DNA of 32,000 nucleotides from a cyanobacterium endosymbiont of Epithemia turgida isolate EtSB Lake Yunoko (GCF_000829235.1 NZ_AP012549.1:2730001-2762000); one strand, 5' to 3'. Positions 2,701 through 25,635 are shown, counted from the first letter of the stretch. The notes: a model not told the origin generated them from the letters alone. Numbers and translations: made by a program.

Positions 2701-2858
2701 GTAAGTAAATATCAATTAATATTTAAAAAGCAAATTATTTTGGATCTATATATTGTTTTAATTAATTTATTTTACAATAAATTTTTTTATAAATGTGTTT
2801 TTGCCGAACTGCCCATATAGAATAAACTAGTTAAATACTTATTTAAGAACCCTCAGAG

Positions 2859-4275
2859 TTAAAAATTAGTAAAATTTATGAATCCATAAGATCTCTTTTA
2901 AATTAACTCAAATTTATTGTTTATATCTTCTAATGTTCCTTGCTAAAAAGATAATATTTTTTCTTATTTAAAACCTCTTTAATAGCGTTTTATCCCTAAT
3001 TAGCAAGGTTTTCTATACCACTCAATTTATTTTAACAGTCTTGATACCTAGTTCTATTTTTTTTAGAATTATTCTAAATTCTTCTGATAATTGATGTATT
3101 TCTTAGAGACGGGTTTAATTTTATGAGTCTAGTTTAACTTATATATATTTCTTTGATGCTGGATTTGTTTAATCTTAACTTGATTTTTAAGTTCTATAGT
3201 TTATTATTTAAGAGGGTTTAAATTATTTAATTAAGTATTGACTTATTTGATGATGTGATATGTATTTGCTGCCACTTAAGTTTATGACATTAATTTATTC
3301 ATATTTATAGGATTTTATTAAATATAGAGAAATATTTTTAATCTTTTTTAAAGTTTCTTCCTCCCAAGCTTCTGACTATTTTGCTCCTTCTTAAAATTTT
3401 CCTGTTTTTCAATTATCACCATCATTTTTTGATATAAATCTACTAACACTACATAATACTAAATATAGTTATAAAAACTAACTTAGAATAAGAGGGCAAT
3501 AGTCTAGAGAGAAATGATGTATAGAAAATATTATTTAGTTCCACCTCTTAGTTTACTATCTTTTTAAGATAGCATTTTCTTTTTTAAAAATTTTATAAAT
3601 CAACTTTTTAAAAACCTTCTCTTAATATAATTAGAGTTGATTCTTATGAAAATAAAATTATCAACCAATAAACTGCCTAAAAAATTAGGTCACAAATTAA
3701 AATTAAAGACCAGCAGATAGGCAAATATAGACATAAACGACAGTAGTCGATTGGACAGGTAGAGAAAATGATATTACTCAAAAAAGTTTAAGATCAAAAT
3801 ATATAGCCTTTCGAACAAGAAATATTTATTAAAAATAAAACTTTTTTAATAAAAAACTAGATAAAAGATATTCAGAAGTTGAAATAGATATATAGCTATA
3901 TCAATAAATAAAAAAAAAATTAAAAATTATATCAATGATAATGAGTTAAATTTTCCGTATTTTTTTCATGATAGTATGGCAATTAAATTTAGTATGATAA
4001 CTTCCCTGTCTTTTAATTATAGCAATTTAATCAAATGTAAACTATTTCAACTGCTACGGTTTTGATATCTGTAATTTTTGACCTAAATCTTCAAGTATTA
4101 TTTCTATTTTTTGTTCAATAACTCCATTGACGATGATTAACCCTGAGATTGACGGCGCTCTCTTCTCAAGGCAAAGCCAATCTTCGATAGTTAATTTATT
4201 GTTTTCATGGAATTTATGGTGGCTGAACCAAAATAAATCCAAGTTTCTATTCGGTCTATTTTTTTGACAAATCAA
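2859..4275 (-). mobile_element. Decayed ISL3-family transposase gene, relic copy A (many stops and frameshifts)
   Basis: Minus-strand translation ending at the stop 2861-2859 reads EKILSF*QGTLEDINNKFELI*KRSYGFINFTNF*. This matches the ISL3 transposase C-terminal signature (E-G-x-N-N-K-I-K-x-x-K-R-x-x-Y-G-F-R-N-F-x-N-F). Nt 2883-2963 align with copy B 16419-16499 at roughly three quarters identity by hand, and 3263-3294 align with 16845-16876. The upstream extent is inferred from typical transposase length. The 73-aa ORF 4054-4275 (..SGLIIVNGVIEQKIEIILE..) may be the N-terminal remnant. Confidence 0.55.
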
Positions 4276-4324
4276 ACTATTCCTAAATGGAATCTACACC
4301 ATAATTATGTTTTTGACAAACTCA
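4261..4324 (+). repeat. Two direct copies of a TTTTTGACAAA(T/C) motif 49 bp apart, possible IS end remnants
   Basis: tttttgacaaatcaaac at 4261-4277 and tttttgacaaactcatc at 4310-4326. The same core recurs at 19668-19678 and, inverted, at 19540-19550 and 26692-26702. Confidence 0.4.
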
Positions 4325-4717
4325 TCATTGATAATTAAAATTTTTCTTTATTTTATATTTTTTGTATTCACATAACAGGTTCAGTATAAACTGTTTTAAG
4401 ACATTAAATAATTGTTGACTATTATCAGTTCTTTTATTCTTTTCTAAGCTCTCCCTCTTTAAGGGATATTATACCTTTATTCTTGCCAAATTATTTATTT
4501 TTACTTCTCGGATAATCCAACAATTATTCTTTTCCTCTAATTATTGATACAGAAATTATTTCCTTAAAAGATATTTTTTAATATATTTATCAAATCTGCA
4601 ATTTTTTTACTGTTCCATCCTCTTAAACTTAAACATCAGTGCCAAAACTTATTGGTCTTATTCAATTTATTTTAAATAATTAAGATCAACCTGCTAATTA
4701 TTTTTAAATAAATTAAA

Positions 4718-6211
4718 TCACGTTTTTGCTTCTTCCACAAGGAGCTTAGAGCGCTTAACTATTTCGGGAATGCTAATAGGATAGTCTCCGGTAAAACAAG
4801 CAGAACAGAAACTATTGGGATCTTCTTCCGTTACTTCTAACATTCCTTGCCAGCTCAGATAAGCCAAAGAATCTACTCCTATTTGTCTTCCAATATCAGC
4901 AACAGATTTGGTGGCTGCTACTAGTTGAGTTTGGCTATCAGTATCAATCCCATAAAAACATGGATGAGTAACAGGGGCGGAAGAAATCCTCATATGTATT
5001 TCTTTAGCACCAGCATCACGCAAGGCTTTGACAATTTTACGACTAGTGGTTCCTCGTACAATAGAATCATCTACTATAATCACTCGTTTGTCTACAAGTA
5101 CATCTTTAAGGGTATTCAACTTCATTTTAATCCCCAACTCTCGCATCTGTTGAGTGGGTTGGATAAACGTCCTTCCTACATAACGATTTTTTATTAATCC
5201 TTCCCCGTAAGGAATTTCTGTTACCTGGGAAAATCCAATAGCTGCGGGAATACCAGAATCAGGAACTCCCATCACTAAATCAGCTTCAACAGTAGATTCT
5301 CGCGCCAATTGTCGCCCTAAACGTACCCGATAACTGTACAGAGTTTCACCGTGCATTATGCTATCAGGACGAGAAAAATAAATCATTTCAAAAATACATA
5401 ATTTCCGTTTCGGTTGAATTACCCAGTGGAAAGATGATAAGCCATTTTCGGTAATCCAAACTAATTCCCCTGGTTCTACATCCCGTAGATAGTCTGCTCC
5501 AATAATGTCTAAGGCACAAGTTTCTGAGGCAAGGACATAACGAACAGGATCTCCTTCCAAAATGCCGATAACTAAGGGACGAATACCGTTAGGATCTCTT
5601 ACTCCCATTAATCCCACTGGAGTTCCAATAGCTAAGCTATAGGCTCCAGAACACAGTTGAAACGCACTAATAGCTGCTTCTAACCACTCTTTTCCCTTAT
5701 CAACTTCTTGGGCAATTGCCACTGCAATCATCTCTGAATCGGTGCTGGTATTAAAGTTACAGCCTCGTTTTGTGAGGATCTGACGTAACTCTAGAGTGTT
5801 AACAAGGTTGCCGTTGTGTGCTAGAGCTAGATGACCTAAACGGGTGTTGAGAACAGCAGGTTGAGCGTTAGCTTTTTGACTAGATCCTGTAGTTGAATAG
5901 CGGGTGTGTCCAATGGCTATTTTCCCAGTCAATTTATTTAAAGTAGATTCTTTAAAAACTTGGGCAACTAACCCCATGTCCTTGTGAATGTGAACACGAT
6001 TTCCATCTAAAGTGGCAATTCCAGCCGATTCTTGTCCTCGATGCTGCAGGGCATAAAGTCCAAAATATGTTAGTTTTGCAACACTTTTTTCGGGGGCATA
6101 AAGTCCAAAAACACCACAGGCTTCTTCGAGTTTTTCAGAGAATCGATAGAGAGGGTTAATGGTATCAGTCAGTTGCTGATGAGCATTAAGAATCTGATCG
6201 TTAGCGGTCAT
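4718..6211 (-). CDS. purF: Amidophosphoribosyltransferase (glutamine PRPP amidotransferase)
   Basis: 497 aa. A propeptide is followed by the Ntn nucleophile CGVFG. It has the PRTase motif VIIVDDSIVRGTT and Cys residues of the 4Fe-4S type (CFYGID, CSACFTGDYP). AGGAG lies about 14 nt upstream of the ATG. Confidence 0.95.
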   Translation of the reverse strand: MTANDQILNAHQQLTDTINPLYRFSEKLEEACGVFGLYAPEKSVAKLTYFGLYALQHRGQESAGIATLDGNRVHIHKDMGLVAQVFKESTLNKLTGKIAIGHTRYSTTGSSQKANAQPAVLNTRLGHLALAHNGNLVNTLELRQILTKRGCNFNTSTDSEMIAVAIAQEVDKGKEWLEAAISAFQLCSGAYSLAIGTPVGLMGVRDPNGIRPLVIGILEGDPVRYVLASETCALDIIGADYLRDVEPGELVWITENGLSSFHWVIQPKRKLCIFEMIYFSRPDSIMHGETLYSYRVRLGRQLARESTVEADLVMGVPDSGIPAAIGFSQVTEIPYGEGLIKNRYVGRTFIQPTQQMRELGIKMKLNTLKDVLVDKRVIIVDDSIVRGTTSRKIVKALRDAGAKEIHMRISSAPVTHPCFYGIDTDSQTQLVAATKSVADIGRQIGVDSLAYLSWQGMLEVTEEDPNSFCSACFTGDYPISIPEIVKRSKLLVEEAKT

Positions 6212-6623: not shown

Positions 6624-8930
6624 TTAAACTTTCAACTTTCTTTCAATTGCCGTTGACCAGAGTTTAAGCATCTGCTTGATATCTAAGTTAACCAAAGACA
6701 AGTTGTCAGAAGCAGTGATATTTAAACTTTTAGCGGAGGTTTGACCTATTTTTTGCCAATTTTTACCTAACTCTTGATTTAAATAGGTTTCCAATTTATT
6801 TTGATTGATGAGGCTAACAGAAACAATTATTTGTCCAGTTACTTCTCCAAATAATAATTCATCAAGTCGTTTCTCATCTTCCACTTGTAGGAAAATCTCT
6901 GCTCCTAATCTGCCACTAATGCAACATTCTGCCAAGGCAACACCTAGTCCACCTTCTGAACAATCATGAGCAGATTGTACCCAACCTTGACGAATGGCAT
7001 TACGGCATACTTTTTGTACTAATATTTCAGTATTAATGTTTACTTTAGGTGGCTTCCCTGCTACTATCCCGTGCAAGCTAGCTAAATATTCTGACCCCCC
7101 TAAGGTAGGTTTATTTCCTATTCCCAAAACATAAATTAAATCCCCTACTTTTTGCCACCCTTGACTACATATTTTGGTGATGTCAGGAATTAAACCCACC
7201 ATGCCTATGACTGGAGTAGGATAAACAGGCTGAGGTTTTCCGGCAGAATCAAGGGTTTCATTGTAAAGGGAAACATTTCCTCCAGTCACCGGAGTATTTA
7301 AATCTCGACAAGCTTCAGAAATACCCTCACAAGCTAAAGCTAATTGCCAATATCCAGTAGGGTTTTCAGGACTACCAAAATTGAGATTATCCGTAACTGC
7401 TAAAGGTTCTGCGCCCACACAACTTAAATTTCTAGCAGCCTCAGCTACGGCGGCTTTCGCCCCTTCGTAGGGGTCAAGATAAACATAACGGGAATTACAG
7501 TCAGTAGTAGCCGCAATCCCAATCTGACAGGTGTTTGGGTTTGCTTCAATAGGACGAATACGAATTATCGCCGCATCAGCTTCTCCAGGCAAGATCACAG
7601 TATTATTCTGAACCTGGTGATCATATTGACTATAGACCCATTTTTTTGAGGCAATAGTGGGAGTATCTAATAGGTCTAAAAGAATTTCATTCCAAGTCTT
7701 CAATTGCCCGTTAATCTCAATCCCATTTACTGTGCAATCAGGTAAATTTTTAGCTGTCCACTGCCAAGCCTTTTGGACATACTTAGGGGGATTGTCTGGT
7801 AGTTTTCGATGATAAATAGGAGTATTATTGACTAAGGCCGTAGCTGGAATTTCAGCAGCAATTTCTCCTTTAAATAATATCCTAACAATGGGTTCACTAA
7901 TAACGGTTCCTGCAACCACTGCTTGCAGTTCCCAACGGTGAAAAATCTCAATTAATTCTTGTTCCCTACCTTTTTTGACAACAAATAACATCCTTTCTTG
8001 AGACTCTGACAACAGGTATTCGTAGGGAACCATTCCGGTTTCTCGTACAGGAATTTTATCTAAGTCTAATTCAACTCCCACCTCTCCATTAGCTGCCATT
8101 TCTGAGGTGGAACAGGTAATTCCTGCTGCACCCATATCCTGGGCGGCGACAACTGCACCGGTTTTAAAGGCTTCCAAACAAGCTTCAATTAAAGATTTTT
8201 CTAAAAAAGGATCTCCAACCTGTACTGCAGGGCGATCATCGATAGATTGGACCGTCAGTTCCGCACTAGCAAAACTCGCTCCTCTCATGCCATCTCTTCC
8301 AGTAGTTGAACCGACGTATAAAACTGGGTTGCCAATGCCTGATGCCCCAGATTTAATAATTTCGGAAGTTTCCATCAACCCCAGGGCCATAACGTTAACT
8401 AGAGGATTGCCGCTATAAGCAGTATCAAAATAAATTTCACCTCCTATAGTAGGAACTCCAACTGCATTTCCATAATGAGAGATTCCTTCAACTATCCCGA
8501 TAAATAATTTTCGGGTTTTGGCGTCTTCCAAATTACCAAAGCGCAGAGAGTTCAAACAAGCTATAGGACGCGCTCCCATTGTAAAAATGTCTCTGAGGAT
8601 ACCACCGACCCCTGTGGCTGCCCCTTGAAAAGGCTCGACCGCAGAAGGATGGTTATGGGATTCAATTTTAAAAGCTAATTGTAGTCCATCCTCCAAATTT
8701 ACGACCCCTGCATTTTCTCCTGGTCCAACGAGAATGCGATCTCCTTTTGTGGGGAATTGTTTTAGCAAGGGGCGAGAATTTTTATAGCAACAGTGTTCTG
8801 ACCACATAACCCCAAACATTCCTAATTCCGCCTTGTTAGGATGGCGTCCTAGTCTTTGAACAATTTCTTCATATTCCTGAGGTTTGATACCTTCTGCGGC
8901 GATTTCTTCTGAGTCAAAGGGGTTAATCAT
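6624..8930 (-). CDS. purL: Phosphoribosylformylglycinamidine synthase subunit PurL (FGAM synthase II)
   Basis: Family motifs are [24 protein letters not shown] and DCSEGGL. The ORF opens at 8978, but the conserved N-terminus begins at Met17 ([23 protein letters not shown]), with its ATG at 8930-8928. I therefore place the start there. Confidence 0.93.
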
Positions 8931-9359
8931 AGAGGACTGCTTTAGGAGAACAGGGGTAATGGTGAGACAACATAGCAATCACCATTTAGAACTTGCCAGT
9001 AGGATTAATCACTGGTCATTTAGTTTAAACTTATTCTTTCGTTATTGCTTGATTTTCTAGTTCAAAATTTTCATTACTCTGTTTGAAAAAAAGTAGTAAG
9101 AATTTTTTCAACAAGAATTACAACAATGTATGACTGATGATGTATCTCAGTATGATACATCATTAATGACCACGATTACATTATAATCAGTTCTGCTATT
9201 AGTCGTGTAAAACTATATATTACTGATGTTACATAGTGATATAACTAATATTTTTTGTTCTATATAAATAGGTTTAACCTTCTAAATAAATATTGGCATC
9301 TTATATTATTAGATATTCATTAATATATATATGGTTACTTTGCTGTTGCTACTTTGCGA

Positions 9360-9722
9360 GGGTTACTTAAGCAGTCATTTATTATGAAATTGATGTTTGA
9401 GAATTTAAAAAGTAATTAATTTTTTATTTTTTGTATTTTCGCGTAAAACCCTAAAATTACAGGAGCTGAGTAACAATAGATGTTAGCAAATTTAACTTCA
9501 AGAGTCGGATATTTAATCCATAACAAATGTCTATAATTTAACAGAAAAAAGCTTTAATACAGACGTTAATATAATGAGTATCCTGAATGTTTAAAGCATA
9601 TTTATAGTAACTTTTATAAGAAGAAACACTAGATATCACTTTATAAAAAATAATAACAATAAATTGGGATTGACCAAATAACTATAGCAGTATATTCAAG
9701 AATATAGTAATTTTAATACTAA
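9360..9722 (+). mobile_element. Decayed, 5'-truncated ISL3-type transposase relic, copy D
   Basis: Nt 9649-9720 (aataataacaataaattgggattgaccaaataactatagcagtatattcaagaatatagtaattttaatact) align with the C-terminal block of copies A-C. The translation is NNNNKLGLTK*L*QYIQEYSNFNT. A second anchor near 9367 (acttaagcagtca) resembles copy A acttaagtggcagca. purL begins at 8930, so at most ~790 nt of the element can remain. Confidence 0.4.
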
Positions 9723-10035
9723 AATTTTTACTAAATTTAGTATTAAGTGGATCTAAAAAAAACAACATAAATACTACTTAAATAAGTTTTAAAAAATAGT
9801 TATAATCAGGCTTACAACCTACAAAGAGATTAAAGATAAATTATGCTTATATCAATATAAATTTTTAGGATTATATCAATATTTTAATTCACAAAATAAT
9901 ATAGAAGACTTGAAAGCCGAGAAACTAAATATAGAGAGAAAAGTAGGAACATTTATTTAAAAGTATATGTAATACTCTAGCTACTTTCAAATAAATGTTC
10001 CCTGAACCCGTAATATAGTGTTTAGCAAGATTTAA

Positions 10036-10806
<771 letters not shown>

Positions 10807-10855
10807 GAAATGGTTGATAATTAATAGTAGTGACCAGTTGTCAGTAATGCGGTGA

Positions 10856-11145
10856 CTGGTCAACTTATGTGTTAGACAACAAATCTATGATAAAAGGGCA
10901 GCTAAGTTAATTGATGATGATAAAAAAAGAGAAATAGCACAAGTTATACACTTCGCCAATAATGAAGTACATGTTGCTTACGATAGGCTTAGTCAGATAA
11001 CTTCTGAGACGGAGAGTAATGTTAATGTACGGTTTAGATATAGGGGACAGGAATTAGATCAAGAGATAAGACTTTATTATTATCGTATGCGATTTTTATG
11101 AATCTAAAACTGGACAGTTTATTAGTGAATATTCCATGGGGTTTA
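10856..11145 (+). pseudogene. Fragment of an RHS/YD-repeat protein gene (end of the repeat core), start-less and frameshifted
   Basis: An open frame without ATG reads ..QIYDKRAAKLIDDDKKREIAQVIHFANNEVHVAYDRLSQITSETESNVNVRFRYRGQELDQEIRLYYYRMRFL*. After a +1 shift it continues YESKTGQFISEYSMG. This matches YD repeats (Y-x-Y-D-x-x-G-x-L) and the RHS core end (F-T-G-Q-E-x-D-x-E-T-G-L-Y-Y-Y-R-A-R-Y-Y-D-P-x-T-G-R-F-I-S-E-D-P-I-G). Confidence 0.6.
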
Positions 11146-11486
11146 GAAGTGTATATATGAATATATATCAAAATTCTTAATTATAGCGAGCCTAATATGT
11201 CAATATACAAAATATAAAAAAAAATAATTATCAATAGTAGGTATGTCAAAATATATAACTATTTTGTGCTCAACTCTGCCTTTCCACTGGCTTAATACCT
11301 ATAGCACTAAATACTAAACTTAATTTAATTGAAACGAAAACCCTGATATAACAATGTCTATATAATAACTATAGCTATTATAAGCTTATGATTAATAATT
11401 ACACTTTGTTTATATATTTTATTTTTTTATACAAAAGGTTGGGTGAAATTTAATAAACAAAAATTAAAAGTATTGATACACAAAGT

Positions 11487-11672: not shown

Positions 11673-14291
11673 CTATTCACTTATGATCATATCAGACAAA
11701 CATTTAAACGTCAGTTTTTCATTTTCTAAATCTACAAAAATAGTATCTCCTGCTTTAAATTCTTCCCGTAAAATTGACTTAGCTATCGCAGTTTCTAAAT
11801 ATTTTTTTATTGCTCGTTTTAATGGTCTTGCCCCATACACTGGGTCGTAGCCTATTTCTGTTAGAAAATCTAAAGCTAATTCCGATAGCTTTAGGTTAAT
11901 TTTTTGCTCAGCTAATCGTGTTTTTAATAACTGAATCTGGATGTCAACGATTTTTTGTAATTGATACTTTTGCAATCCGTGGAAGATAATGATTTCATCG
12001 ATACGATTAAGAAATTCAGGACGAAAACTATTAGACATTGCATCCATCACACGAGAACGCATTTCCTTATAAAAAGAATCATCTCCAGCTACATCTAAGA
12101 TGTATTGCGATCCAATATTACTGGTCATGATAATAATGGTATTCTTGAAATCTACCACATGACCTTGAGCGTCAGTTAATCGCCCATCATCGAGAATTTG
12201 TAACATGAGATTAAAAACATCGTTATGGGCTTTCTCGATTTCATCAAACAAAATTACAGAGTAAGGACGACGGCGAATAGCTTCTGTTAATTGTCCCCCT
12301 TCATCATAGCCAACATACCCCGGAGGCGCACCCATTAAACGGGATACTGTATGTTTCTCCATATATTCAGACATATCGATACGAACTAAGGCTTCTTCCG
12401 TATCAAAAAGATTCTCGGCTAATGCCTTAGCTAATTCAGTCTTACCGACCCCTGTAGGACCAAGAAAAATAAAACTTGCAGTAGGGCGACTAGGATCAGA
12501 AAGTCCAGCGCGAGAACGTTGAATAGCTTCTGAAACAGCAGTTACAGCCTCTTCTTGTCCAATCAATCGTTTATGGATTTCATCTTCTAAATAAAGTAAT
12601 TTTTCTTTCTCTGATTCTACCAACTTGCTAATAGGAATTCCTGTCCATTTAGAAATAATCTCAGCAATATCTGATTCTAAAACTTCTTCCCGTAATAAAG
12701 TTTTTCCAGTAGTTTGACGTTCTGCAATTTTTATTTCAAGTTCCTTAATCTGTTGCTGTAAATCTATTAGTTTTCCATATCGCAGTTCTGCTGCTTTATT
12801 AAGGTCATAATCTCGCTCTGCTTGTTGAATTTCTAAGTTTATTTGGTCGATAGTTTCTTTTGTTTGACTAATTTCATCAATAGCTTCTTTTTCTAATTGC
12901 CATTGAGCATTAAGTTGTGACTGTTCTTCTTTTAACTCTACAAGTTCTTTATCAAGTTTTTCCAACCTTTCTAGAGAAACAGTATCTACTTCTTTGTGTA
13001 AGGATAATCGTTCCATTTCTAACTGAATAACTTTGCGATCTACTTCATCTAATTCCTCGGGTTTAGAAGTAATTTCTATCTTTAATTTAGCGGCTGACTC
13101 ATCTACTAGGTCAATAGCTTTATCTGGTAAAAAACGATCACTAATATAACGGTTAGATAACATGGCCGCAGCAACCAAAGCAGTATCGGCAATTTTGACC
13201 CCGTGATGGACTTCATAACGTTCTTTCAGTCCCCGTAAAATAGAGATAGTATCGACTACATTTGGTTCATTAACTATGACCTCTTGAAAACGCCGTTCTA
13301 AAGCAGCGTCTTTTTCGATATACTTACGATATTCATCGAGGGTTGTTGCCCCAATACAGCGCAATTGTCCACGTGCTAACTTAGGTTTTAAGAGGTTCCC
13401 TGCATCCATAGCTCCTTGAGTTGCTCCCGCTCCAACAACGGTGTGAATTTCGTCAATGAACATGATAATCTCCCCTTGAGAATCTGTAACTTCTTTGAGA
13501 ACTGCTTTAAGACGTTCTTCAAATTCTCCACGGTATTTTGCCCCGGCAATTAATGCTCCCATGTCCAAGGCAATTAACTTTCGATCTCGTAAAGATTCAG
13601 GGACATCACGGCTAATAATTCGTTGTGCCAACCCTTCAACGATAGCAGTTTTACCAACTCCAGGTTCCCCAATTAAGACAGGGTTATTTTTAGTTCTACG
13701 AGAAAGAATTTGAATAGTTCGACGGATTTCATCATCTCTTCCAATAACAGGATCGAGTTTACCTTCTCGCGCTAATTGAGTTAAATCTCGACCATATTTT
13801 TTTAACGATTCGTATGTCTCTTCAGGGTTTTGGCTAGTCACTTTTTGAGTTCCTCTGACTTGTTGAATAATCTTTTTTAATTGAGCTTCATTGAGACCAA
13901 ATTCTTGTAGTAAATCTTGACCGAAACGGTCATCTTTAACATAGGCTAACAACAAATGCTCAACAGAAATATAATCATCTCCAAAGTCTTTACGAAATTG
14001 TTCAGACCTGTCAAGAAGACTATCTAGACTCCGTCCTAAGTAAATAGACTTACCAAGGTTAGATACTTTGGGTTGACGATTGATAAATTCTTCGATTCGG
14101 TCTTGCAGATGTTGAATACTAATATCCGCTTTATTAAAGATGTTGGTAGCTAAACCTTCTAGTTCTAAAAGAGATGCCATCAGGTGTTCACTTTCAATTT
14201 GTTGATGACTATGTTGTTTAGCAATATCGGGAGTTCGGACAATAGCCTCCCATGCCTTTTCAGTAAATTGATTAGGATTAGTCGGTTGCAT
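11673..14291 (-). CDS. clpB: ATP-dependent chaperone/disaggregase ClpB
   Basis: 872 aa with N-terminal Clp repeats. There are two AAA+ modules (Walker A GEPGVGKT and GPTGVGKT). A long coiled-coil middle domain sits between them, which is typical of ClpB. Confidence 0.95.
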
Positions 14292-14699
14292 TGTTTAGGA
14301 ATAAGTGTAGTAAAGTCATATAAAACATTGTAAATATGATAAATTTTTAGGTTAAGACGGTTAACCCTACTATTTATGGTTGGGTTTGTATAAGCGATAT
14401 GTTAACAAAAAATTAACTTTTAAACAGGGGAAGCAATTAGCTGATTTTTTAAGGAGGGATATTCATATATTTTATATATAAAATAATTTAAAGAGCCACA
14501 AAAGATAAAATGTCTAAGGTTTTGGAGAAAAAATATTAAAAAAGACATAAAAAATGTATTAAAGTAACTAGTTTTTAAAGATAAGAGAATTTTAAATAAA
14601 AATAAAAGTAAAAATAGTAGTTTATTCTGAATTAGTTATTTTAATAATAAACTTTTTCTAAGAAAACAATTTATTTTACTTCAAAATAAATAAAATTGG

Positions 14700-15018
14700 A
14701 CTAAAAAAGTATAAATTAAAGTAGGTTTATAGAACATCATCGATTATATTAAAAATTGACTAAATTAAAAACGAAGTTAGAATATTTTTTTAGTAAAGCC
14801 TAGATCAAGTATTAAGATTAGTAAAATAGGCTGATTGGTATTAAAAATTTTATTACTTGCACCTAATTGTGGAATAATCAGGTGTTAAGTTGGAGTAATT
14901 ATTTTCTATTCTTACTCAAAGGACAACTAAATAGATAGGAAAAAGTATTAACAATACATTAAAGCTTATTAATAGGAGAGCTTATGTATTTATAAATCTT
15001 GTATTTTTAAATTTTTAA
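14700..15018 (+). mobile_element. Decayed, 5'-truncated ISL3-type transposase relic, copy C
   Basis: Nt 14938-15018 translate to GKSINNTLKLINRRAYVFINLVFLNF*. They align base-for-base with copy B (EGINNKFEVDKKRAYGLRKFVNFKL*). The upstream stretch acctaattgtggaataatcaggtgtt matches copy B aaacctgtgggatggttatatgttg, and another anchor lies near 14711-14750. clpB starts at 14291, so at most ~730 nt can remain. Confidence 0.5.
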
Positions 15019-15213
15019 AATTTAAAATTTAGCATATAATTAGTTAATTTTATATCCTAAATCAGGTGTAACCATTTATTTAAAATTTATGAAAATTATA
15101 TTAATTTTAAAAAATAAATTAGTTTGACTAAAAATTTTATTATTGGTTTTGTAAAAATATTTTTGTGACTATTAATTTATTATCAGATTTTTAAATTATT
15201 CGACTTATTTTAA

Positions 15214-15420
15214 TTAACGGCTAAATTTTTGAGCTTGAGCAACCAGTCCGGCACTTACATAACGTCCATAATTATCGAGACGATTTTGTTGAGCAGCACG
15301 AAAAGGAGATACAAAAGTATCAACTAAGCCAGAACTCATTATCATGACAGTAGTCGCGAGAATGATATAGTTACGAATAACGATAACGTTTTCGTTAACA
15401 GTAGTTGTTTTGCTAAACAT
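15214..15420 (-). CDS. Hypothetical small protein (68 aa) with one hydrophobic segment
   Basis: AAGGAG lies 10 nt upstream of the ATG (minus strand accaaggagtaaccaccaagATG). G+C is visibly higher than in the surrounding AT-rich tract. There is a predicted TM stretch YIILATTVMIMSSGLV. I recognise no family. Confidence 0.45.
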   Translation of the reverse strand: MFSKTTTVNENVIVIRNYIILATTVMIMSSGLVDTFVSPFRAAQQNRLDNYGRYVSAGLVAQAQKFSR

Positions 15421-15501
15421 CTTGGTGGTTACTCCTTGGTATGGACGCCTTTACTATATAGGAAACAAATTGGTGATGTCAGTCCCAAAACCCTAGATAT
15501 C

Positions 15502-15531
15502 AGGGGTCGTAGTCGTGCCCCTTTTCTTTTT
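15502..15531 (+). terminator. Intrinsic-terminator-like hairpin plus T-tract with no intact upstream gene
   Basis: The sequence is aggggtcg-tagt-cgtgcccct followed by ttttcttttt. The stem has GGGG/CCCC plus G-U and two further pairs. The G-U pair becomes C-A on the minus strand, so the structure is better on the + strand. Confidence 0.35.
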
Positions 15532-15684
15532 AGAAGTGGAATTAAGTAGAAATTTTTCCATCCTTAATATAATTACCCTACCTACATAGGGGGTTTTAGA
15601 AGTCTCCTATTGACAAAGAGTATTCAAGATTAAGGCATCGCTGTCATTGGAGCAGTACGTACTACTATACTGATTTAATATGAG

Positions 15685-16323
15685 ATGACTATGAAATCAT
15701 TGTTTATTGTATTAGAAGGAATTGACAAGGCAGGGAAGTCGACTCAAGCAGAATTATTAAAAAACTATTTTCTTGCTCACCAACAGCAAGCTGTTATTAG
15801 CTCTGAACCTACTGATGGGCCAATTGGTAGATTAATTCGTGAAGCTATGCAAAGTAAAATCATTGCCATTAAACAGAAAGAAAGCTTTGATGAACAAATG
15901 GCTTATTTATTTACTGCCGACAGGCATTATCATTTATTTAATGACATCAATGGAGTTTATAAATTAATTAATAAAGACCATACTCATGTCGTAGCAACCC
16001 GTTATTATTTTTCATCTTTAGCTTATAATTGCAATACTAAAAAAAAATTTACTTTTGTAGCAACATTGAACCAAGAATTTCCTGATCCTGATGTGGTTTT
16101 TTATATCGATATTCCATTAAAAATAGCTTTGTCTAGACTAAGTAATTCTTCTGCCAAAGAAATATATGAGACAGCAAAAAAACTTAGAAAAGTTAGACAT
16201 AACTACGAAAATATTTTTAAAACTTATGAAGGGAAAATATTTAAAGTAGATGGAACTGAATCTATAGAAGCAATACATAAGAAGATTTTAACTTATCTTC
16301 AAGAAACTTTTAATTTTTATTAA
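15685..16323 (+). CDS. Thymidylate kinase-like P-loop kinase (divergent dTMP kinase family)
   Basis: 212 aa. The P-loop is LEGIDKAGKST (family G-x-D-G-x-GK-S/T-T). It also has SEPTDGPIG, FTADRHYH and VVATRYYFSSLAYN. The last corresponds to the D-R-Y/H...S..AY segment but reads TRY. A lid/C-terminal KVRHNYE-like segment is present. Confidence 0.7.
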   Translation: MTMKSLFIVLEGIDKAGKSTQAELLKNYFLAHQQQAVISSEPTDGPIGRLIREAMQSKIIAIKQKESFDEQMAYLFTADRHYHLFNDINGVYKLINKDHTHVVATRYYFSSLAYNCNTKKKFTFVATLNQEFPDPDVVFYIDIPLKIALSRLSNSSAKEIYETAKKLRKVRHNYENIFKTYEGKIFKVDGTESIEAIHKKILTYLQETFNFY

Positions 16324-16365
16324 ACCCTAATGTTATATAAAACTGAAATAATGTAGAATCAACTA

Positions 16366-17700
16366 GTGACGTGCAAAAACAAAACACTTTAAAGTTTAAA
16401 ATTCACAAATTTTCTAAGTCCATAAGCTCTCTTTTTGTCAACCTCAAATTTATTGTTAATACCTTCTATTTTTTCTGCAAGATAGATAATATTTTTTTCA
16501 ATGCAACATATAACCATCCCACAGGTTTTTAGCTATGATAAATAAGTTTTAAAATTCTAAAGCTAGTTTCAATATTCCTGATAACTATTTTTCGGTGTTT
16601 TAAAAACTTGTTCTATATTACTGTAGTTTTAAAATAACTAACGAGGTGTTATATACTTAGTTTGACTTAGCTTTTTATTATTTTTTTGAGTTATTATTAA
16701 TTAATATATGTTTGTTGTTATTTACCATTAATTTATTATCAATACTAAATTTTTAACTATTATTTTTAAGCTCTTTATTTTGTATTTAAATTATTTTTCG
16801 TTAAGTACCCAATTGAGCATTTACTTGTTTCATTCAATGGAATAAATTTGTTGCTACTTCAACTTATGATATTGATTGATAATTTTTTTAAAAAAAAATT
16901 TTTAAAATCTATATTGCTATTTTTAATTTTAGTAAAAATATGTTTTCAAAAAACGTTTAGCTATTCGTTGTCTCTATTTTTTTATTTCTATAATTATTAC
17001 ACTGACTTTTAACACAAAAGAATAACTTTTGGGGTTTTAAAAACGGTATTTTTATTAAAAATTTACTATTTTTGTAGGTTTTTGAAAAACCTACAATTCT
17101 TTATCTAATCTAAATTGTAGAGTATCATCTCTATTTTTTCTTAAATTACTTTATTATTTTTATTTATATTCTTAATGTTACTAGGTAAGAATATTTTAAA
17201 GATTATGGCTTTAATTTTTTTAGTATCTATCTTAAAAATAACAGTTAAAATTTACTGCAAATTTATTTACGTATTGATTGTATCTAATTTAATAATAATC
17301 TTTTTCAAGATAAATAGATTATATATCAAAGATAATTTCATAGTAATTAAAGTGATTAATTTTTGATTAACATATTTTTTCACTAGTTAAATACAATAAA
17401 TATAAGTTGCTGTTAATTTTAATTATCACCCATTTTTTAGATCTAAAAAATGGGTGATAAATGGTTAAGTTTTATAAATTTAGAGTCTCATTTATTAAGC
17501 CGAGTTAAATATCTAATATTATAGATATAAGTTAAATCAGGGTGCTAATCTTAACATAATTTAACTTCAAAATAAACATTAATAGAGTATTAGATGTATA
17601 ATAATTACAGCTTTTTAGAAGGCGATTGTTGATATTCAAACTTTGTATCCATGTTGTAACTTTTTACATAAAAGGTTCGCTAAAACCAAGTTAATTATAA
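16366..17700 (-). mobile_element. Decayed ISL3-family transposase gene, relic copy B, filling the tmk-like / thyA-like spacer
   Basis: Minus-strand translation ending at the stop 16391-16389 reads LKTCGMVICCIEKNIIYLAEKIEGINNKFEVDKKRAYGLRKFVNFKL*. The final 36 codons have no stop, so this is the best preserved of the copies. It is homologous to copy A at two anchors. The 1388-bp spacer matches the size of a full ISL3 element, but the ends are not defined. Confidence 0.55.
17423..17460. repeat. Perfect 38-bp palindrome ttatcacccattttttAGATCTaaaaaatgggtgataa
   Basis: The reverse complement is identical to the sequence, checked base by base. It is centred on AGATCT, lies inside IS relic B and sits 252 nt upstream of the thyA-like ATG. 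Confidence 0.9.
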
Positions 17701-17711
17701 GTAATTAATTC

Positions 17712-19220
17712 ATGAGAATCACTCAATCAAAATATCAAGTTGAATATATTCCTCATTATCAACCTAATCAACTGATCTGTGGTCATGGACAGACTGCTAT
17801 CATTACTGGATGGACAGTTCGACAGTCAGTAGCTAAACGTTTAAACCCAGAAGACTATGCAGTTATTGGTAATTTATATAGTCCTACTAGGGGAATTAGT
17901 CCCTTAATTCGTAATTTGTTAGCTAACCCTCATGTCCGATATTTAGTGATTTTACAGGCAACAAAAGAAGATAAAAATTCTGGAGGATGTCAATGTTTAT
18001 TAGATTTCTTACAACAAGGTTTTAGACAAGGAATCAGCGATATAGGCAGAAATATATGGGTAGTCAATTCGAAGATAACTGGATATATTGACATTGAAAT
18101 TCCTGCTGATGTCTCAGAGAATTTGCGTCAATCTTTAAAATTCAAAGAAGCAAAATCAATTGAAGAAGTAATGAATATAATAAAAGAATTTAATCAATTT
18201 AAAATAGAACCTTGGGGTGAACCGTTAACTTTTCCTGAAAGAAAAAGTTCTCCAACAGTTTTACCAGGTCCTAGATATGGCCATCGGATTGAAGGAAAAA
18301 CTATTGCAGAAACCTGGGTTAAAGTATTACATAGAATTAAAACAATAGGAACAATTAGACAGACAATCTATGGACAATGGCAAGAATTAATTGATCTAAT
18401 AGCTATTGTTACCGATGAACCACCAGAGTTTTATTTTCCTGAGCCTAATTATTTACCTATTAAAAGAAATTATCTCAAAGATTATATTGAACAAATATTA
18501 GACGATGCACCCAAAAAAGAAGGAGTAAAATATACATACGGACAACGGTTAAGATCATGGTTTGGACAAGACCAAATTGAACAACTAATTAATAAATTGG
18601 CAGGAGATATTGATTCATCAAGAGCCGTAATGTCATTGTGGGATGTAAACGATTATGAAGATAGTGATAGTCCTCCTTGTCTTAATCATATTTGGGTGAG
18701 AATTGTTGATAAAGAATTATCTTTAACTGCTACATTTCGTAGTAATGATATGTTTTCTGCTTGGCCATCTAATGCAATGGGATTAAGATTTTTGCAGCAA
18801 TTTATCCAAGATAAAATTATCACAAAATCCAATTATAGTCTTACTTTAGGACCTCTAATTATTATTAGTCAAAGTGCACATATTTATAGTGACTGCTGGG
18901 AACATACACAACAAATTATTGATACTGAATATACAAAAATAAATCAGAGACAAAATTTTAATGACCCCAGTGGCAACTTTGTGATTTCGGTAAAAGATAA
19001 TCGTATTGTTGTTGAACATTTAACTCCAGGTTCAGGAGAAATTATCAACTGTTATTCAGGTAAACTTGCTCATAAACTGTATAAAAAAATTGCCTTAAAT
19101 TCCCCTAGTATTCACATTGAACATGCGATGTACTTAGGGAAAGAATTACAAAAAGCAGAATTATGTCTAGTTAAGAAATTAAATTGTTACCAACAAGATC
19201 TACCATTAAATTTTTCATAA
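17712..19220 (+). CDS. Three-domain thymidylate-synthase-like protein: MtrA-like N-domain + ThyA-like core + DUF4346-like C-domain
   Basis: 502 aa. Residues ~25-105 (AIITGW...AVIGNLYSPTRGISPLIRNLLANPHVRYLVIL...LLDFLQQG) follow the MtrA pattern (AVITCG...[32 protein letters not shown]...). The core has YGQRLR (276-281), SPPCLNH with Cys323 (nt 18678-18680), RSND (343-346), Asn354 exactly 11 residues after the Arg as in E. coli R166/N177, and SAHIY (388-392). The C-terminus DPSGNFVISV...HAMYLGKELQKAE resembles DUF4346. Domain names are from memory, not from an HMM run. Confidence 0.8.
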   Translation: MRITQSKYQVEYIPHYQPNQLICGHGQTAIITGWTVRQSVAKRLNPEDYAVIGNLYSPTRGISPLIRNLLANPHVRYLVILQATKEDKNSGGCQCLLDFLQQGFRQGISDIGRNIWVVNSKITGYIDIEIPADVSENLRQSLKFKEAKSIEEVMNIIKEFNQFKIEPWGEPLTFPERKSSPTVLPGPRYGHRIEGKTIAETWVKVLHRIKTIGTIRQTIYGQWQELIDLIAIVTDEPPEFYFPEPNYLPIKRNYLKDYIEQILDDAPKKEGVKYTYGQRLRSWFGQDQIEQLINKLAGDIDSSRAVMSLWDVNDYEDSDSPPCLNHIWVRIVDKELSLTATFRSNDMFSAWPSNAMGLRFLQQFIQDKIITKSNYSLTLGPLIIISQSAHIYSDCWEHTQQIIDTEYTKINQRQNFNDPSGNFVISVKDNRIVVEHLTPGSGEIINCYSGKLAHKLYKKIALNSPSIHIEHAMYLGKELQKAELCLVKKLNCYQQDLPLNFS

Positions 19221-19711
19221 ATAAAGGTGCATTATACTCTTATTTTTATAAGAAAATATAATAGACCTTGAACAAATAAGTGAAAGTTACATAGAATTAA
19301 TTGATATTCTTTGTTAGATATATGTTATCTGAATAAACTAAAGTAATAAAAAAGTCAAAGATTTTTTTCAGTAACTTATAGTAAATACTAGTGTGCTCTT
19401 TTTAAAAAAGTGGTTAGAATAAATGTGCAAATAATTAGAAATATTCTGTCCTTAAGTATTTGCTTGAATGTGATTTGATAAATTTTAGAAAATAGTTTAG
19501 TTTTAAAAACTCACCTTTAAGTCTCGATAAGACTATTGGATTGTCAAAAAATACATTAAGAGGAAAGAATTATGTACTTTTTAAAATAGGTTTTAAAATT
19601 TTTCCTTGTATTCTGATAATAGAATTATAACCTCTAATTTTTTGATCAAAAAATTAACTATTTATTCTTTTTGACAATGATTATCATAAGGGATAAAGAC
19701 ATCTATAAAAA

Positions 19712-20161
19712 ATGAAAAGCAAACGTGAGTATATGAAACTTAAAATTATAAAATTAAGAGAACAAGCAGTGATTCCTAGATATGAACATAACAATGATTC
19801 AGGTCTTGATTTAATTTCTATAGAAGATGTAGAAATTGAATCAGGAGAAAGTCGATTAGTTAAAATAGGGATTTCTATTGAATTACCTCCAAATACTGAG
19901 GCACAAATACGTCCCAGAAGTGGATTAGCATTAAAGCATAAAATCACTGTTTTAAATACGCCAGGGACTATCGATGAGGGATATCGAGGAGAGATTGGAG
20001 TTATCTTAATTAATCATGGAAAAACATCTTTTCAAGTAAGACAGGGAATGAGAATTGCTCAAATGGTTATTGCTCCAGTAATTCGAGTTACTCTTGAAGA
20101 AGTAGATTATTTGAGTGGTACAACCAGAGGACCTAGAGGATTTGGCTCAACTGGTTTTTAA
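19712..20161 (+). CDS. dut: dUTP diphosphatase (trimeric dUTPase)
   Basis: It has all five dUTPase motifs: [29 protein letters not shown] and [10 protein letters not shown]. The true start may be the second Met (MKLKIIKL, nt 19733). Confidence 0.9.
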
Positions 20162-20257
20162 TTTATTTTCTATGTAATTAAAATTAATAAATAATTCCTA
20201 GAATAAGAATTCCTAAAACAAAAAAACTAATTATACAAAATAAATACAGAATAGCTA

Positions 20258-20791
20258 ATGAAACTATTAGAAGAACAACGACCAACCTGGGATGAATACT
20301 TTTTAATGATCGCTAAACTAGCAGCAACGAGATCAACCTGTTTAGCATTTCCTGTCGGTGCAGTTATTGTCAAAGATCGACAAGTATTAGCCACAGGGTA
20401 TAATGGTTCTCCGTCAGGATCAGTTCACTGTACTGCCCAAGGATTTTGTTATAGCGAATTAAGTAGCTGTAATGCTTCTAACAGCTTACCGTCCCGTGCG
20501 GTTCATGCAGAAGCAAACGCAATTGCCCAAGCAGCAAGACATGGAATTACCACCGATGGTTCGGTTGTTTATATTACCTTAGAACCCTGCATTTCTTGTT
20601 TGAAATTAATTATTTCTGCTGGTATAAAAAAAGTTTTCTACGAAACCGAATTCAATAGCGGAGATAAACTTTTAGTTAGAGATTCTTTTGTCAAAGATGG
20701 TTTAGTGACTTTAACTCAAATTAGACTTTCTAAAAAAATGGCACAACGAGCCTCATTATTCCTATTGAATCCGATATCAATTGCTAAATAG
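20258..20791 (+). CDS. dCMP deaminase (ComEB/deoxycytidylate deaminase family)
   Basis: It has the zinc-binding motifs VHAEANAI and LEPCISCLKLI. The N-terminal WDEYFLMIAKLAATRSTC is typical of dCMP deaminases. Confidence 0.88.
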   Translation: MKLLEEQRPTWDEYFLMIAKLAATRSTCLAFPVGAVIVKDRQVLATGYNGSPSGSVHCTAQGFCYSELSSCNASNSLPSRAVHAEANAIAQAARHGITTDGSVVYITLEPCISCLKLIISAGIKKVFYETEFNSGDKLLVRDSFVKDGLVTLTQIRLSKKMAQRASLFLLNPISIAK

Positions 20792-25563: not shown

Positions 25564-25635
25564 TGGGTCGCCTGGGATTCGAACCCAAGACCAATCGGTT
25601 AAAAGCCGAGTGCTCTACCGCTGAGCTAGCGACCC
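25564..25635 (-). tRNA. tRNA-Lys (anticodon UUU)
   Basis: The minus strand reads GGGTCGC-TA-GCTC-AGCGGTA-GAGC-A-CTCGG-CTTTTAA-CCGAT-TGGTC-TTGGG-TTCGAAT-CCCAG-GCGACCC-A. It forms a clean cloverleaf with a 7-bp acceptor stem and a TTCGAAT T-loop. CCA is not encoded. The top pair of the anticodon stem is a C-U mismatch. Confidence 0.9.

Follow-up and report, generated by a model that had tools for sequence, protein, structure and literature searches.

The closest described relative of the protein studied here is the thymidylate synthase ThyA (EC 2.1.1.45, PF00303), with its short TIGR03283 form. A minimal version of the same fold is found in the pyrimidine-modifying enzymes T4 dCMP hydroxymethylase, MilA CMP hydroxymethylase and phage dCMP hydroxylase AfhB. 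The bifunctional DHFR-TS of protozoa and plants is a permanent fusion of thymidylate synthase with another domain, one concerned with the pterin cofactor. Many other cyanobacteria use the flavin-dependent ThyX, which presumably fills the same cellular role as the synthase described below and has no homology to it. A COG census of 31 cyanobacterial genomes found ThyX in 23 and ThyA in 8, the sum being 31 (PMC5954106), which suggests that the two alternate among cyanobacteria and is consistent with one synthase per genome. A further point of comparison is MtrA, the corrinoid-binding subunit of methyl-H4MPT:coenzyme M methyltransferase, in which His84 is the lower axial ligand of cobalt (PMC4915002).

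Here we analysed a stretch of 32,000 nucleotides (the window) from a diatom "spheroid body" cyanobacterium, the endosymbiont of Epithemia turgida, whose genome is reduced and decaying. A sequence-only reading had described four co-oriented genes of thymidylate metabolism, and their open reading frames were confirmed at exactly the same boundaries on the plus strand: the thymidylate kinase gene tmk (15685-16323, 212 aa), a gene of the thymidylate-synthase family (17712-19220, 502 aa), the dUTP diphosphatase gene dut (19712-20161, 149 aa) and a dCMP deaminase gene (20258-20791, 177 aa). Our analysis supports a predicted functional module leading from dUMP to dTDP, in which dCMP deaminase and dUTPase would supply dUMP, the 502-aa protein would methylate it to dTMP by ThyA-type covalent catalysis, and Tmk would convert dTMP to dTDP. 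The explanation that we favour, with a probability of about 0.7, is that of a vertically inherited cyanobacterial thymidine-nucleotide cluster whose 502-aa protein is the dTMP-making synthase, its accessory domains binding a pterin donor. This protein is most likely the thymidylate synthase of the cell, with extra domains that bind the cofactor, and we infer that its product is dTMP and that it is the only such enzyme of the cell.

Judged from sequence, only the synthase appears atypical among the four. Tmk scores 175.4 bits against the NCBI dTMP-kinase equivalog model TIGR00041 (cutoff 83.25) and matches PF02223 (E 8e-43), its P-loop GIDKAGKST is present, and thymidylate kinases are its best solved relatives; lying far above the equivalog cutoff, it is a canonical Tmk rather than the divergent kinase proposed earlier. 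The dUTPase exceeds its equivalog cutoffs (NF001862, 183.3 vs 103; TIGR00576, 176.8 vs 102.55). Its start is ambiguous, the protein having 149 aa if it begins at position 19712 and 142 aa if it begins at the ATG at 19733, and in the Rhopalodia gibberula endosymbiont the start is called at the equivalent of this ATG. The deaminase matches PF00383 with 96.4 bits (cutoff 25) and stays under the ComEB equivalog cutoff (129 vs 219). Among solved structures its best relative is 2hvv, a dCMP deaminase from S. mutans (E 1e-24), to which its HAE and PCxxC zinc motifs align, followed by the T4, chlorovirus and human dCMP deaminases.

In the synthase, a minimal "methanogen-type" ThyA catalytic domain (about residues 190-410; 18279-18941) is embedded between an N-terminal MtrA-like Rossmann-type domain (about residues 1-175; 17712-18236) and a C-terminal DUF4346, or "PterinBD", domain (residues 418-496; 18963-19199). 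The protein had been called an atypical fusion of a type lacking known biochemical characterisation, and both points hold, no biochemical study of the three-domain family having been found in the literature searched. The synthase matches PF00303 with 61.7 bits (cutoff 24.3, residues 270-408), and scores 136.9 bits against the methanogen-type model TIGR03283 (cutoff 174.55) and 39.9 bits against TIGR03284 (cutoff 108.35); both equivalog shortfalls were counted against a thymidylate-synthase reading. In hhalign, the family aligns to E. coli ThyA with a probability of 99% (E 4e-17), and the Foldseek matches of the ThyA-like domain are all of the ThyA fold. The AlphaFold model of the full-length synthase is only moderate (pLDDT 73.7, pTM 0.48), and therefore no domain packing can be read from it.

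Residues Cys323, Arg343, Ser344, Asp346, Asn354, His390, Tyr392 and Tyr276, equivalent to Cys146, Arg166, Ser167, Asp169, Asn177, His207, Tyr209 and Tyr94 of E. coli ThyA, respectively, are conserved in 92-100% of 137 family members, with identity down to 32%. Cys323, the predicted nucleophile, lies within a Pro-Pro-Cys motif and is found in 99% of these members, and, of the dUMP-binding residues, Arg343, Ser344, Asn354, His390, Tyr392 and Arg304 (equivalent to Arg127) are present. The synthase shares with ThyA its fold, its catalytic Cys and the equivalents of Arg166, Ser167, Asp169, Asn177, His207, Tyr209 and Tyr94, as well as a genomic role adjoining dUMP-producing genes and tmk. It differs from ThyA, besides its flanking domains and its position under the equivalog cutoffs, in that equivalents of Glu58 and Arg126 are not evident. 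Glu58 aligns with low confidence to Gln261, Arg126 aligns to Ser303, and no Arg21 equivalent is resolved by the alignment; the Gln261 and Ser303 mismatches were counted against our favoured explanation. Moreover, nothing in the family corresponds to residues about 63-84 and 231-264 of E. coli ThyA in the hhalign alignment, and the canonical folate-binding elements, namely the Trp80/Trp83 loop and the C-terminal lid, are missing. Because of this loss the cofactor chemistry of the synthase is in question, as the sequence-only reading had said of its one-carbon donor.

A protein of this fold might make another C5-modified pyrimidine nucleotide, such as 5-hydroxymethyl-dUMP or 5-hydroxy-dUMP, dTMP then coming from a ThyX or ThyA encoded elsewhere. 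Indeed, the top Foldseek match is the phage dCMP hydroxylase 9iqu and not a thymidylate synthase, which was counted against our favoured explanation, and a flavin-dependent dCMP monooxygenase, MilA and T4 dCMP hydroxymethylase are also among the best fold matches. The uncertain Glu58 equivalent, the loss of the folate-positioning elements for hydride transfer and the scores under the equivalog cutoffs point in the same direction. So does a Patescibacteria genome in which another ThyA-like paralogue, which stands alone and is paired with a dCMP deaminase, lies 400 bp away from the three-domain gene; as the two are adjacent they may have different jobs, and this too was counted against the favoured explanation. 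However, the family profile matches true thymidylate synthases best (E 4e-21), about 7 orders of magnitude better than the dCMP and CMP hydroxymethylases (about 1e-13). The position of E. coli Asn177, which we take to be the one specifying uracil, is occupied by Asn in 99% of the members and not by the Asp of cytosine-specific relatives, and Asn354 would select uracil in the window protein. The context is that of housekeeping dTTP synthesis and not of phage DNA modification or antibiotic synthesis, the gene being fused or adjacent to that of Tmk and linked to genes producing dUMP in 65 of 80 loci. As far as is known, the DNA of cyanobacteria contains ordinary thymine, which also speaks against a modified product, as does the maintenance of the gene under purifying selection in UCYN-A and the spheroid bodies, which shed dispensable genes. 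The census cited above likewise sums to one synthase per cyanobacterial genome (PMC5954106). We consider such a modified product very doubtful, and the Tmk fusions, the retention of the gene in the most reduced symbionts and the profile ranking speak against hydroxymethyl-dUMP, which had been kept in play earlier. Synteny, Tmk fusions and retention in reduced genomes would lend indirect support to a predicted conversion of dUMP and methylene-tetrahydrofolate to dTMP and dihydrofolate.

The N-terminal domain is a sequence homologue of MtrA. Its profile matches the MtrA structures 5laa (E 2.6e-13), 8q3v and 5l8x, it has the G..N...NP.(I/V)R core motif and the Rossmann-type fold, and AlphaFold pLDDT values are 80-94 across residues 20-160. 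Members of the family from Patescibacteria and DPANN archaea match PF04208 directly; the window protein alone gives sub-threshold NCBIfam matches to MtrA (49.9 bits vs 568) and no PF04208 match at E <= 0.01. Unlike MtrA, the domain is fused to a thymidylate-synthase core and has no membrane anchor, no GAIPF/YxEN motif and no His84 cobalt ligand (PMC4915002). In the alignment, Gly91 of the window protein takes the place of His84, and there is no histidine at this position in the family consensus (D)xxxSGxaL or in the 25 domain sequences compared. The DUF4346 domain scores 83.9 bits against PF14251 (cutoff 29.6) over the full profile length, and folds as three strands followed by two helices (domain model pLDDT 86.5), with D418, G421, H471 and E478 conserved. 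As no solved structural relative was found (best Foldseek E 0.1, no sequence match), its putative pterin-binding role is suggested by co-occurrence with thymidylate-synthase and dihydropteroate-synthase-like domains, DUF4346 being also the C-terminal part of TIGR00284, the model of an archaeal dihydropteroate-synthase-like protein. In the explanation that we favour, the MtrA-like domain and DUF4346 would replace the missing folate elements and bind the pterin one-carbon donor, DUF4346 being placed exactly where the C-terminal lid of ThyA would be. This would recall DHFR-TS, in which a synthase is likewise fused to another, pterin-related domain, as an analogy of design only: the partner domains of the window protein have no similarity to DHFR, and no reductase motif was found in them.

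The two domains could also serve a distinct cofactor system, by binding a non-folate pterin, a corrinoid or a separate reductant in a thymidylate synthase that neither releases dihydrofolate nor depends on FolA. The absence of the folate-binding Trp loop and lid, the homology to corrinoid-binding MtrA and the sharing of DUF4346 with the archaeal methanopterin-pathway model would all fit. The family is, moreover, common in Patescibacteria and DPANN archaea, which usually lack folate biosynthesis. No FolA was found in the window or near any of 84 related loci, and a tblastn search with T. maritima ThyX, a query validated on plasmid thyX genes, likewise gave no ThyX; these loci cover at most 10 kb on each side, a small part of each genome. 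Microcystis, which carries tmk and the three-domain synthase, is not inhibited by trimethoprim (PMC4531292), although this insensitivity has many other possible explanations. On the other hand, Asp346, the equivalent of the pterin-contacting Asp169, is kept as in folate-dependent ThyA, the cobalt ligand His84 of MtrA is absent from the family, and no NAD(P)- or flavin-binding motif is evident in the synthase. We therefore regard a distinct cofactor system, and with it independence from FolA, as unlikely.

Purifying selection acts on each of the four genes (dN/dS 0.05-0.33), with values of 0.15-0.22 for tmk, 0.16-0.22 for the synthase, which is similar to glk, 0.16-0.33 for dut and 0.06-0.14 for dCMP deaminase, and five spheroid bodies as well as UCYN-A4 have an intact synthase gene. 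The claim that selection has kept the block intact is thus borne out, while the spacers decayed (GC 0.19-0.25, no ORFs) and an insertion sequence rotted between tmk and the synthase gene. This element, part of the same claim, is real but a wreck with no intact ORF. The spacer 16324-17711 holds a decayed insertion sequence, probably of the ISL3 family, with putative transposase remnants on the minus strand, and contains no ORF of at least 64 aa. In the window alone, a relic ORF (16389-16517, minus strand; ...EGINNKFEVDKKRAYGLRKFVNFKL) gives 19.9 bits against PF01610 (cutoff 23), as an ISL3 C-terminal relic. When the spacers of the five spheroid bodies are combined into a consensus, two collinear matches to PF01610 appear on the minus strand, of 24.0 and 23.4 bits, just over the cutoff of 23, covering profile positions 65-162 and 194-238; a repeat search yielded no convincing terminal inverted repeats. 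Between the five symbionts, spacer identity is 63-78%, and because only 37 bp separate tmk from the synthase gene in the free-living SU2, the insertion is a later one. The ISL3 element would have entered before the spheroid bodies diverged and have decayed since. The decayed spacer 19221-19711 corresponds to a site of one or two additional genes in free-living relatives (DUF29-like and/or DCD-like): SU2 and Crocosphaera carry genes there, and the R. gibba symbiont retains a DUF29-like gene relic (tblastn E 9e-9), of which none was found in the window.

Clustering of the pathway had been thought unusual, but it is not special to this genome. It is ancestral in the lineage (SU2, Microcystis, Crocosphaera), the order being tmk-synthase-(two genes)-dut-dCMP deaminase-glk in SU2 and synthase-dut-dCMP deaminase in UCYN-A4, with tmk immediately upstream of the synthase gene in Microcystis. 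In 65 of 80 cyanobacterial loci, the synthase gene has a gene of the dTTP pathway within 5 kb; tmk is directly upstream in 18 of the 80, always on the same strand and with a median gap of 63 bp, dut is linked in 23 and dCMP deaminase in 20. The neighbourhood is thus conserved across cyanobacteria, which argues for vertical inheritance and not for the transferred, self-contained pathway suggested by the sequence-only reading. Such a horizontally acquired "archaeal" thymidylate island, specific to the endosymbiont lineage, would account for the methanogen type of the catalytic core, the architecture shared with DPANN archaea and the insertion-sequence relic inside the block. However, free-living relatives have the same gene order, the GC of the block matches that of neighbouring genes, tmk, dut and the deaminase are of ordinary bacterial types, and the insertion came later. 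Synthase identity falls through 91, 88, 84, 79, 75, 67 and 62-65% from the other spheroid bodies through SU2, Crocosphaera, UCYN-A and Microcystis to Nostocales, a gradient that may be read as following the relationships among cyanobacteria. At the lineage level the evidence already contradicts such an island, which is highly improbable. It is plausible that the synthase family itself was transferred between domains in ancient times, in either direction, because cyanobacteria, Patescibacteria and DPANN archaea share it.

The synthase belongs to a widespread family. A word-indexed search gave 1457 homologues (E <= 1e-5); among the 120 matches listed of these, identities are 62-93% and those with names are all cyanobacterial. 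The family forms 385 clusters at 50% identity (E < 1e-30), with full-length matches down to 32% identity. UCYN-A, Patescibacteria and DPANN archaea also have the three-domain architecture, in some cases with Tmk fused to it, as in DPANN proteins of about 700 aa with the order MtrA-like/TS/DUF4346/Tmk (Rosetta-stone fusions). It is conceivable, though rather unlikely, that the proteins joining an MtrA-like domain, a ThyA core and DUF4346 represent a third, mechanistically distinct route to thymidylate, with the donor or reductant carried in a dedicated two-domain module. If true, ThyA-type covalent chemistry on dUMP would proceed without the canonical folate site, and the enzyme might neither release dihydrofolate nor depend on FolA. 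Such a route would account for the use of this family as the synthase in many cyanobacteria, among them the UCYN-A nitroplast lineage and the diazoplasts of diatoms, and in folate-poor Patescibacteria and DPANN archaea.

The synthase of this cluster is a 502-residue protein of the ThyA family, encoded at 17712-19220 on the plus strand, and is composed of three domains. The N-terminal domain (residues about 1-175) shares homology with the soluble domain through which MtrA binds its corrinoid: its profile matches the MtrA structure (PDB 5laa, E 2.6e-13), and the Pfam MtrA model matches distant family members directly. The cobalt ligand of MtrA is His84 (PMC4915002), a position that aligns with Gly91 of the window protein, and neither the family consensus nor any of the 25 domain sequences inspected has a histidine aligned with it; cobalamin binding in the His-on mode of MtrA was therefore rejected. 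The middle domain (residues about 190-410) is a minimal 'methanogen-type' ThyA core, the protein scoring 136.9 bits with the model of that type, TIGR03283 (under the cutoff of 174.55), and 61.7 bits with PF00303 (over its cutoff). The C-terminal domain (residues 418-496) is a DUF4346 (83.9 bits), at present labelled 'PterinBD' in Pfam. Modelled alone, it is confidently predicted (pLDDT 86.5) as three strands followed by two helices; no solved relative was found in the PDB by fold or sequence, and the literature searched had nothing on DUF4346, PterinBD, PF14251 or MJ0757.

E. coli ThyA, whose numbering was verified, was compared residue by residue with 137 members of the family, the most distant at 32% identity. 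Tyr94, Cys146, Arg166, Ser167, Asp169, Asn177, His207 and Tyr209 (respectively Tyr276, Cys323, Arg343, Ser344, Asp346, Asn354, His390 and Tyr392 in the window protein) are each conserved in 92-100% of members. No counterpart exists in the family to E. coli residues about 63-84, including Trp80 and Trp83, or to the C-terminal lid (residues 231-264), while Arg126 aligns with Ser303 and Glu58, in a weak alignment, with Gln261. Thus the active site has kept most of its nucleotide-binding half and lost the canonical folate-binding elements.

We consider, with a probability of about 0.7, that the protein is a true thymidylate synthase, which would convert dUMP to dTMP with the MtrA-like and DUF4346 domains holding the pterin cofactor. 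A product other than dTMP has to be weighed, as the AlphaFold model of the full-length protein, of moderate quality (pLDDT 73.7, pTM 0.48), finds ThyA-fold proteins only as its top PDB matches, with a phage dCMP hydroxylase first and the mycobacterial and human thymidylate synthases behind it. The conserved Asn, in turn, argues for uracil and not cytosine as the putative substrate base, and the family profile gives its top scores to true thymidylate synthases (E 4e-21), followed by dCMP and CMP hydroxymethylases (about 1e-13). Furthermore, several proteins of DPANN archaea carry a fourth, C-terminal Tmk domain (e.g. P0292, 708 aa), Rosetta-stone evidence that the product of the enzyme feeds a dTMP kinase. 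A different product seems to us very improbable. The use of a distinct cofactor and reductant system, to which the loss of the folate-binding elements could also point, is somewhat less remote and still unlikely; DUF4346 starts precisely where the ThyA lid would be expected, a placement that sits well with the preferred reading of a pterin-holding dTMP synthase.

On the sequences compared, the family would be defined as ThyA-derived, devoid of canonical folate-binding elements and always equipped with MtrA-like and DUF4346 domains. Many ultra-small bacteria and archaea have it as well. The full three-domain architecture is preserved in 385 clusters at 50% identity (E < 1e-30) and is common in Patescibacteria and in the DPANN archaea (Nano-, Woese-, Pace- and Aenigmarchaeota). 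Five DPANN metagenome proteins of about 700 aa (P0277, P0292, P0300, P0337 and P0365) contain up to four domains, namely MtrA-like, thymidylate-synthase core, DUF4346 and thymidylate kinase; those of four were confirmed by Pfam and those of P0300 come from precomputed domains only, and P0365 gave no MtrA match. On a Patescibacteria contig (L085), the three-domain gene (8001-9434) has a second ThyA-family gene as its neighbour at a distance of 400 bp, a stand-alone paralogue of 317 aa (9844-11286, minus strand), paired directly with a dCMP deaminase. With TIGR03283 this paralogue scores 77.9 bits, and its sequence retains the motifs Pro-Pro-Cys, Arg-Ser-x-Asp, Asn and His-x-Tyr. That so small a genome encodes two ThyA-like enzymes suggests that their functions have diverged, and the two may have different roles in that lineage.

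The sequence-only reading had placed four plus-strand ORFs here, with exact coordinates, and was essentially right, save in calling the kinase divergent. Indeed, the tmk product (15685-16323) scores 175 bits with the NCBI dTMP-kinase equivalog model, for which 83 suffices, and thymidylate kinases come out as the best matches among solved structures. The dUTPase (dut, 19712-20161) likewise exceeds its equivalog cutoff (183 bits vs 103), and the deaminase (20258-20791) has zinc motifs and dCMP deaminases as nearest solved relatives (E 1e-24). By these profile and structure matches, all three are ordinary members of their families.

A single peptide pattern search recovered relatives of the synthase in 525 species genomes, and synteny was counted in the best 80 loci. 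All of these are labelled cyanobacterial, except three unclassified MAGs named 'uncultured bacterium' and one MAG labelled Candidatus Gracilibacteria; the synthase of the latter (L047) is 63% identical to that of the window, inside the cyanobacterial range, and the contig is probably a mis-binned cyanobacterial one and not a source of a Gracilibacteria gene. At least one dTTP-pathway gene lies within 5 kb of the synthase in 65 of the 80 loci: dCTP deaminase in 30, convergent in every case, dut in 23, dCMP deaminase in 20 and tmk in 18, always on the same strand and with a median gap of 63 bp. In ten loci the synthase is followed immediately, on its own strand, by a 228-aa DCD-like gene (PF22769, dCTP-deaminase-like; e.g. 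L002:11555-12241), distinct from the ordinary, convergent 193-aa dcd of the 30 loci.

The order is tmk, a 37-bp spacer, synthase, DUF29-like gene, DCD-like gene, dut, dCMP deaminase and glk in the free-living relative SU2; synthase, DCD-like gene, dut and dCMP deaminase in Crocosphaera; and synthase, dut and dCMP deaminase in UCYN-A4, while in Microcystis tmk is directly upstream of the synthase. The neighbourhood is thus conserved in relatives, so that the refuting condition set by the sequence-only reading, a neighbourhood found in no relative, does not apply; conversely, the arrangement is not special to this genome. Among the matches listed, the closest protein of the collection shares 93% identity with the window synthase; its identity is 91% to the orthologues in the endosymbionts ('spheroid bodies') of Epithemia clementina and Rhopalodia gibba, 88% to that of the R. 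gibberula symbiont, 84% to that of strain uoEpiScrs1 and 79% to that of the unicellular cyanobacterium SU2, which shows the window to come from another member of the diatom-endosymbiont lineage. Identity declines from these spheroid bodies through SU2, Crocosphaera, UCYN-A and Microcystis to the Nostocales, as expected of vertical inheritance within cyanobacteria; together with the synteny, this led us to reject a recently transferred island. The locus is a conserved, inherited cyanobacterial thymidylate cluster.

The window is AT-rich (GC about 0.22-0.44). Long stretches of GC about 0.22-0.30 at 2700-4718, 8978-10045 and 14291-15685 contain no ORF of at least 80 aa, consistent with widespread pseudogene decay across the symbiont genome. 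Between clpB and tmk, a 68-aa ORF (15214-15420, minus strand) has a counterpart of equal length and relative position in the R. gibberula symbiont (L001:7548-7754), with no Pfam match, and may represent either a relic or a small protein that has been conserved. The tmk-synthase spacer (1388 bp in the window) has no ORF of at least 64 aa; its minus strand holds a relic, '...EGINNKFEVDKKRAYGLRKFVNFKL', matching the C-terminus of an ISL3 transposase with a sub-threshold score. The spacer is common to all five spheroid bodies, with a length of 1008-1388 bp, 63-78% identity and a GC of 0.19, and its five-sequence consensus yields two collinear ISL3 transposase matches barely over the Pfam cutoff, so that an ISL3 element would have inserted before the spheroid bodies diverged and decayed since. 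The same spacer contains a perfect 19+19-nt palindrome (17423-17460; TTATCACCCATTTTTTAGA / TCTAAAAAATGGGTGATAA), largely kept in the spacer of the R. gibberula symbiont.

The synthase-dut gap is a remnant: free-living relatives carry one or two additional genes there. In SU2 a DUF29-like gene adjoins the synthase on its 3' side, and the R. gibba symbiont is the only one to keep a relic of it (L017:11504-12005, tblastn E 9e-9), with no trace in the window gap (19221-19711). A pseudogene of the Crocosphaera DCD-like gene in that gap was rejected, as tblastn found no trace of it in the window. Pairwise dN/dS of the window genes against four symbionts and SU2 was 0.15-0.22 for tmk, 0.16-0.22 for the synthase, 0.16-0.33 for dut and 0.06-0.14 for dCMP deaminase, with 0.16-0.21 for glk as flanking comparison. 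Survival of the cluster in a decaying genome reflects ordinary essentiality, the locus itself being an ordinary housekeeping cluster. An Rfam search for riboswitches or other RNA elements in the cluster matched only a tRNA-Lys (25564-25635), and promoter and terminator counts, scanned for operon structure, were not above those of shuffled sequence.

Searches of the window and of 84 related loci, each spanning at most about 21 kb, recovered neither ThyX nor FolA. The T. maritima ThyX query did detect thyX genes on plasmids, which validates it, and that plasmid search returned no cyanobacterial sequence among its matches. A COG census of 31 cyanobacterial genomes counted ThyX in 23 and ThyA in 8 (PMC5954106), which is consistent with one synthase per genome, and we infer that this fusion is what was counted as 'ThyA' in the eight. 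Use of ThyX is reported for Trichodesmium (Liu & Yang 2004, as cited in PMC4649490) and, together with a lack of folA, for Synechocystis 6803 and Nostoc 7120 (Myllykallio 2003, as cited in PMC4531292); the names attached to the 80 best synthase loci do not include any of these three. Microcystis, which carries tmk and the fusion synthase, is not inhibited by trimethoprim (PMC4531292), an insensitivity compatible with independence from a FolA-type reductase and far from proof of it.

The point of interest is the synthase family and not the locus. Thymidylate synthesis is essential and a classic drug target, and only two classes of thymidylate synthase, ThyA and ThyX, are recognised to our knowledge. 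Databases already annotate the family as 'thymidylate synthase'; the literature searched contained no test of its product, one-carbon donor, dihydrofolate reductase need or accessory domains, in agreement with the earlier remark that this fusion type is biochemically uncharacterised. A large share of the cyanobacteria, bloom-forming Microcystis and the nitrogen-fixing symbionts and organelles of algae among them, appear to rely on this family as their working synthase. Its chemistry would reveal the route of thymine synthesis in these organisms, bears on whether antifolates affect them, and would assign a function to DUF4346 and to a non-corrinoid MtrA-like domain.
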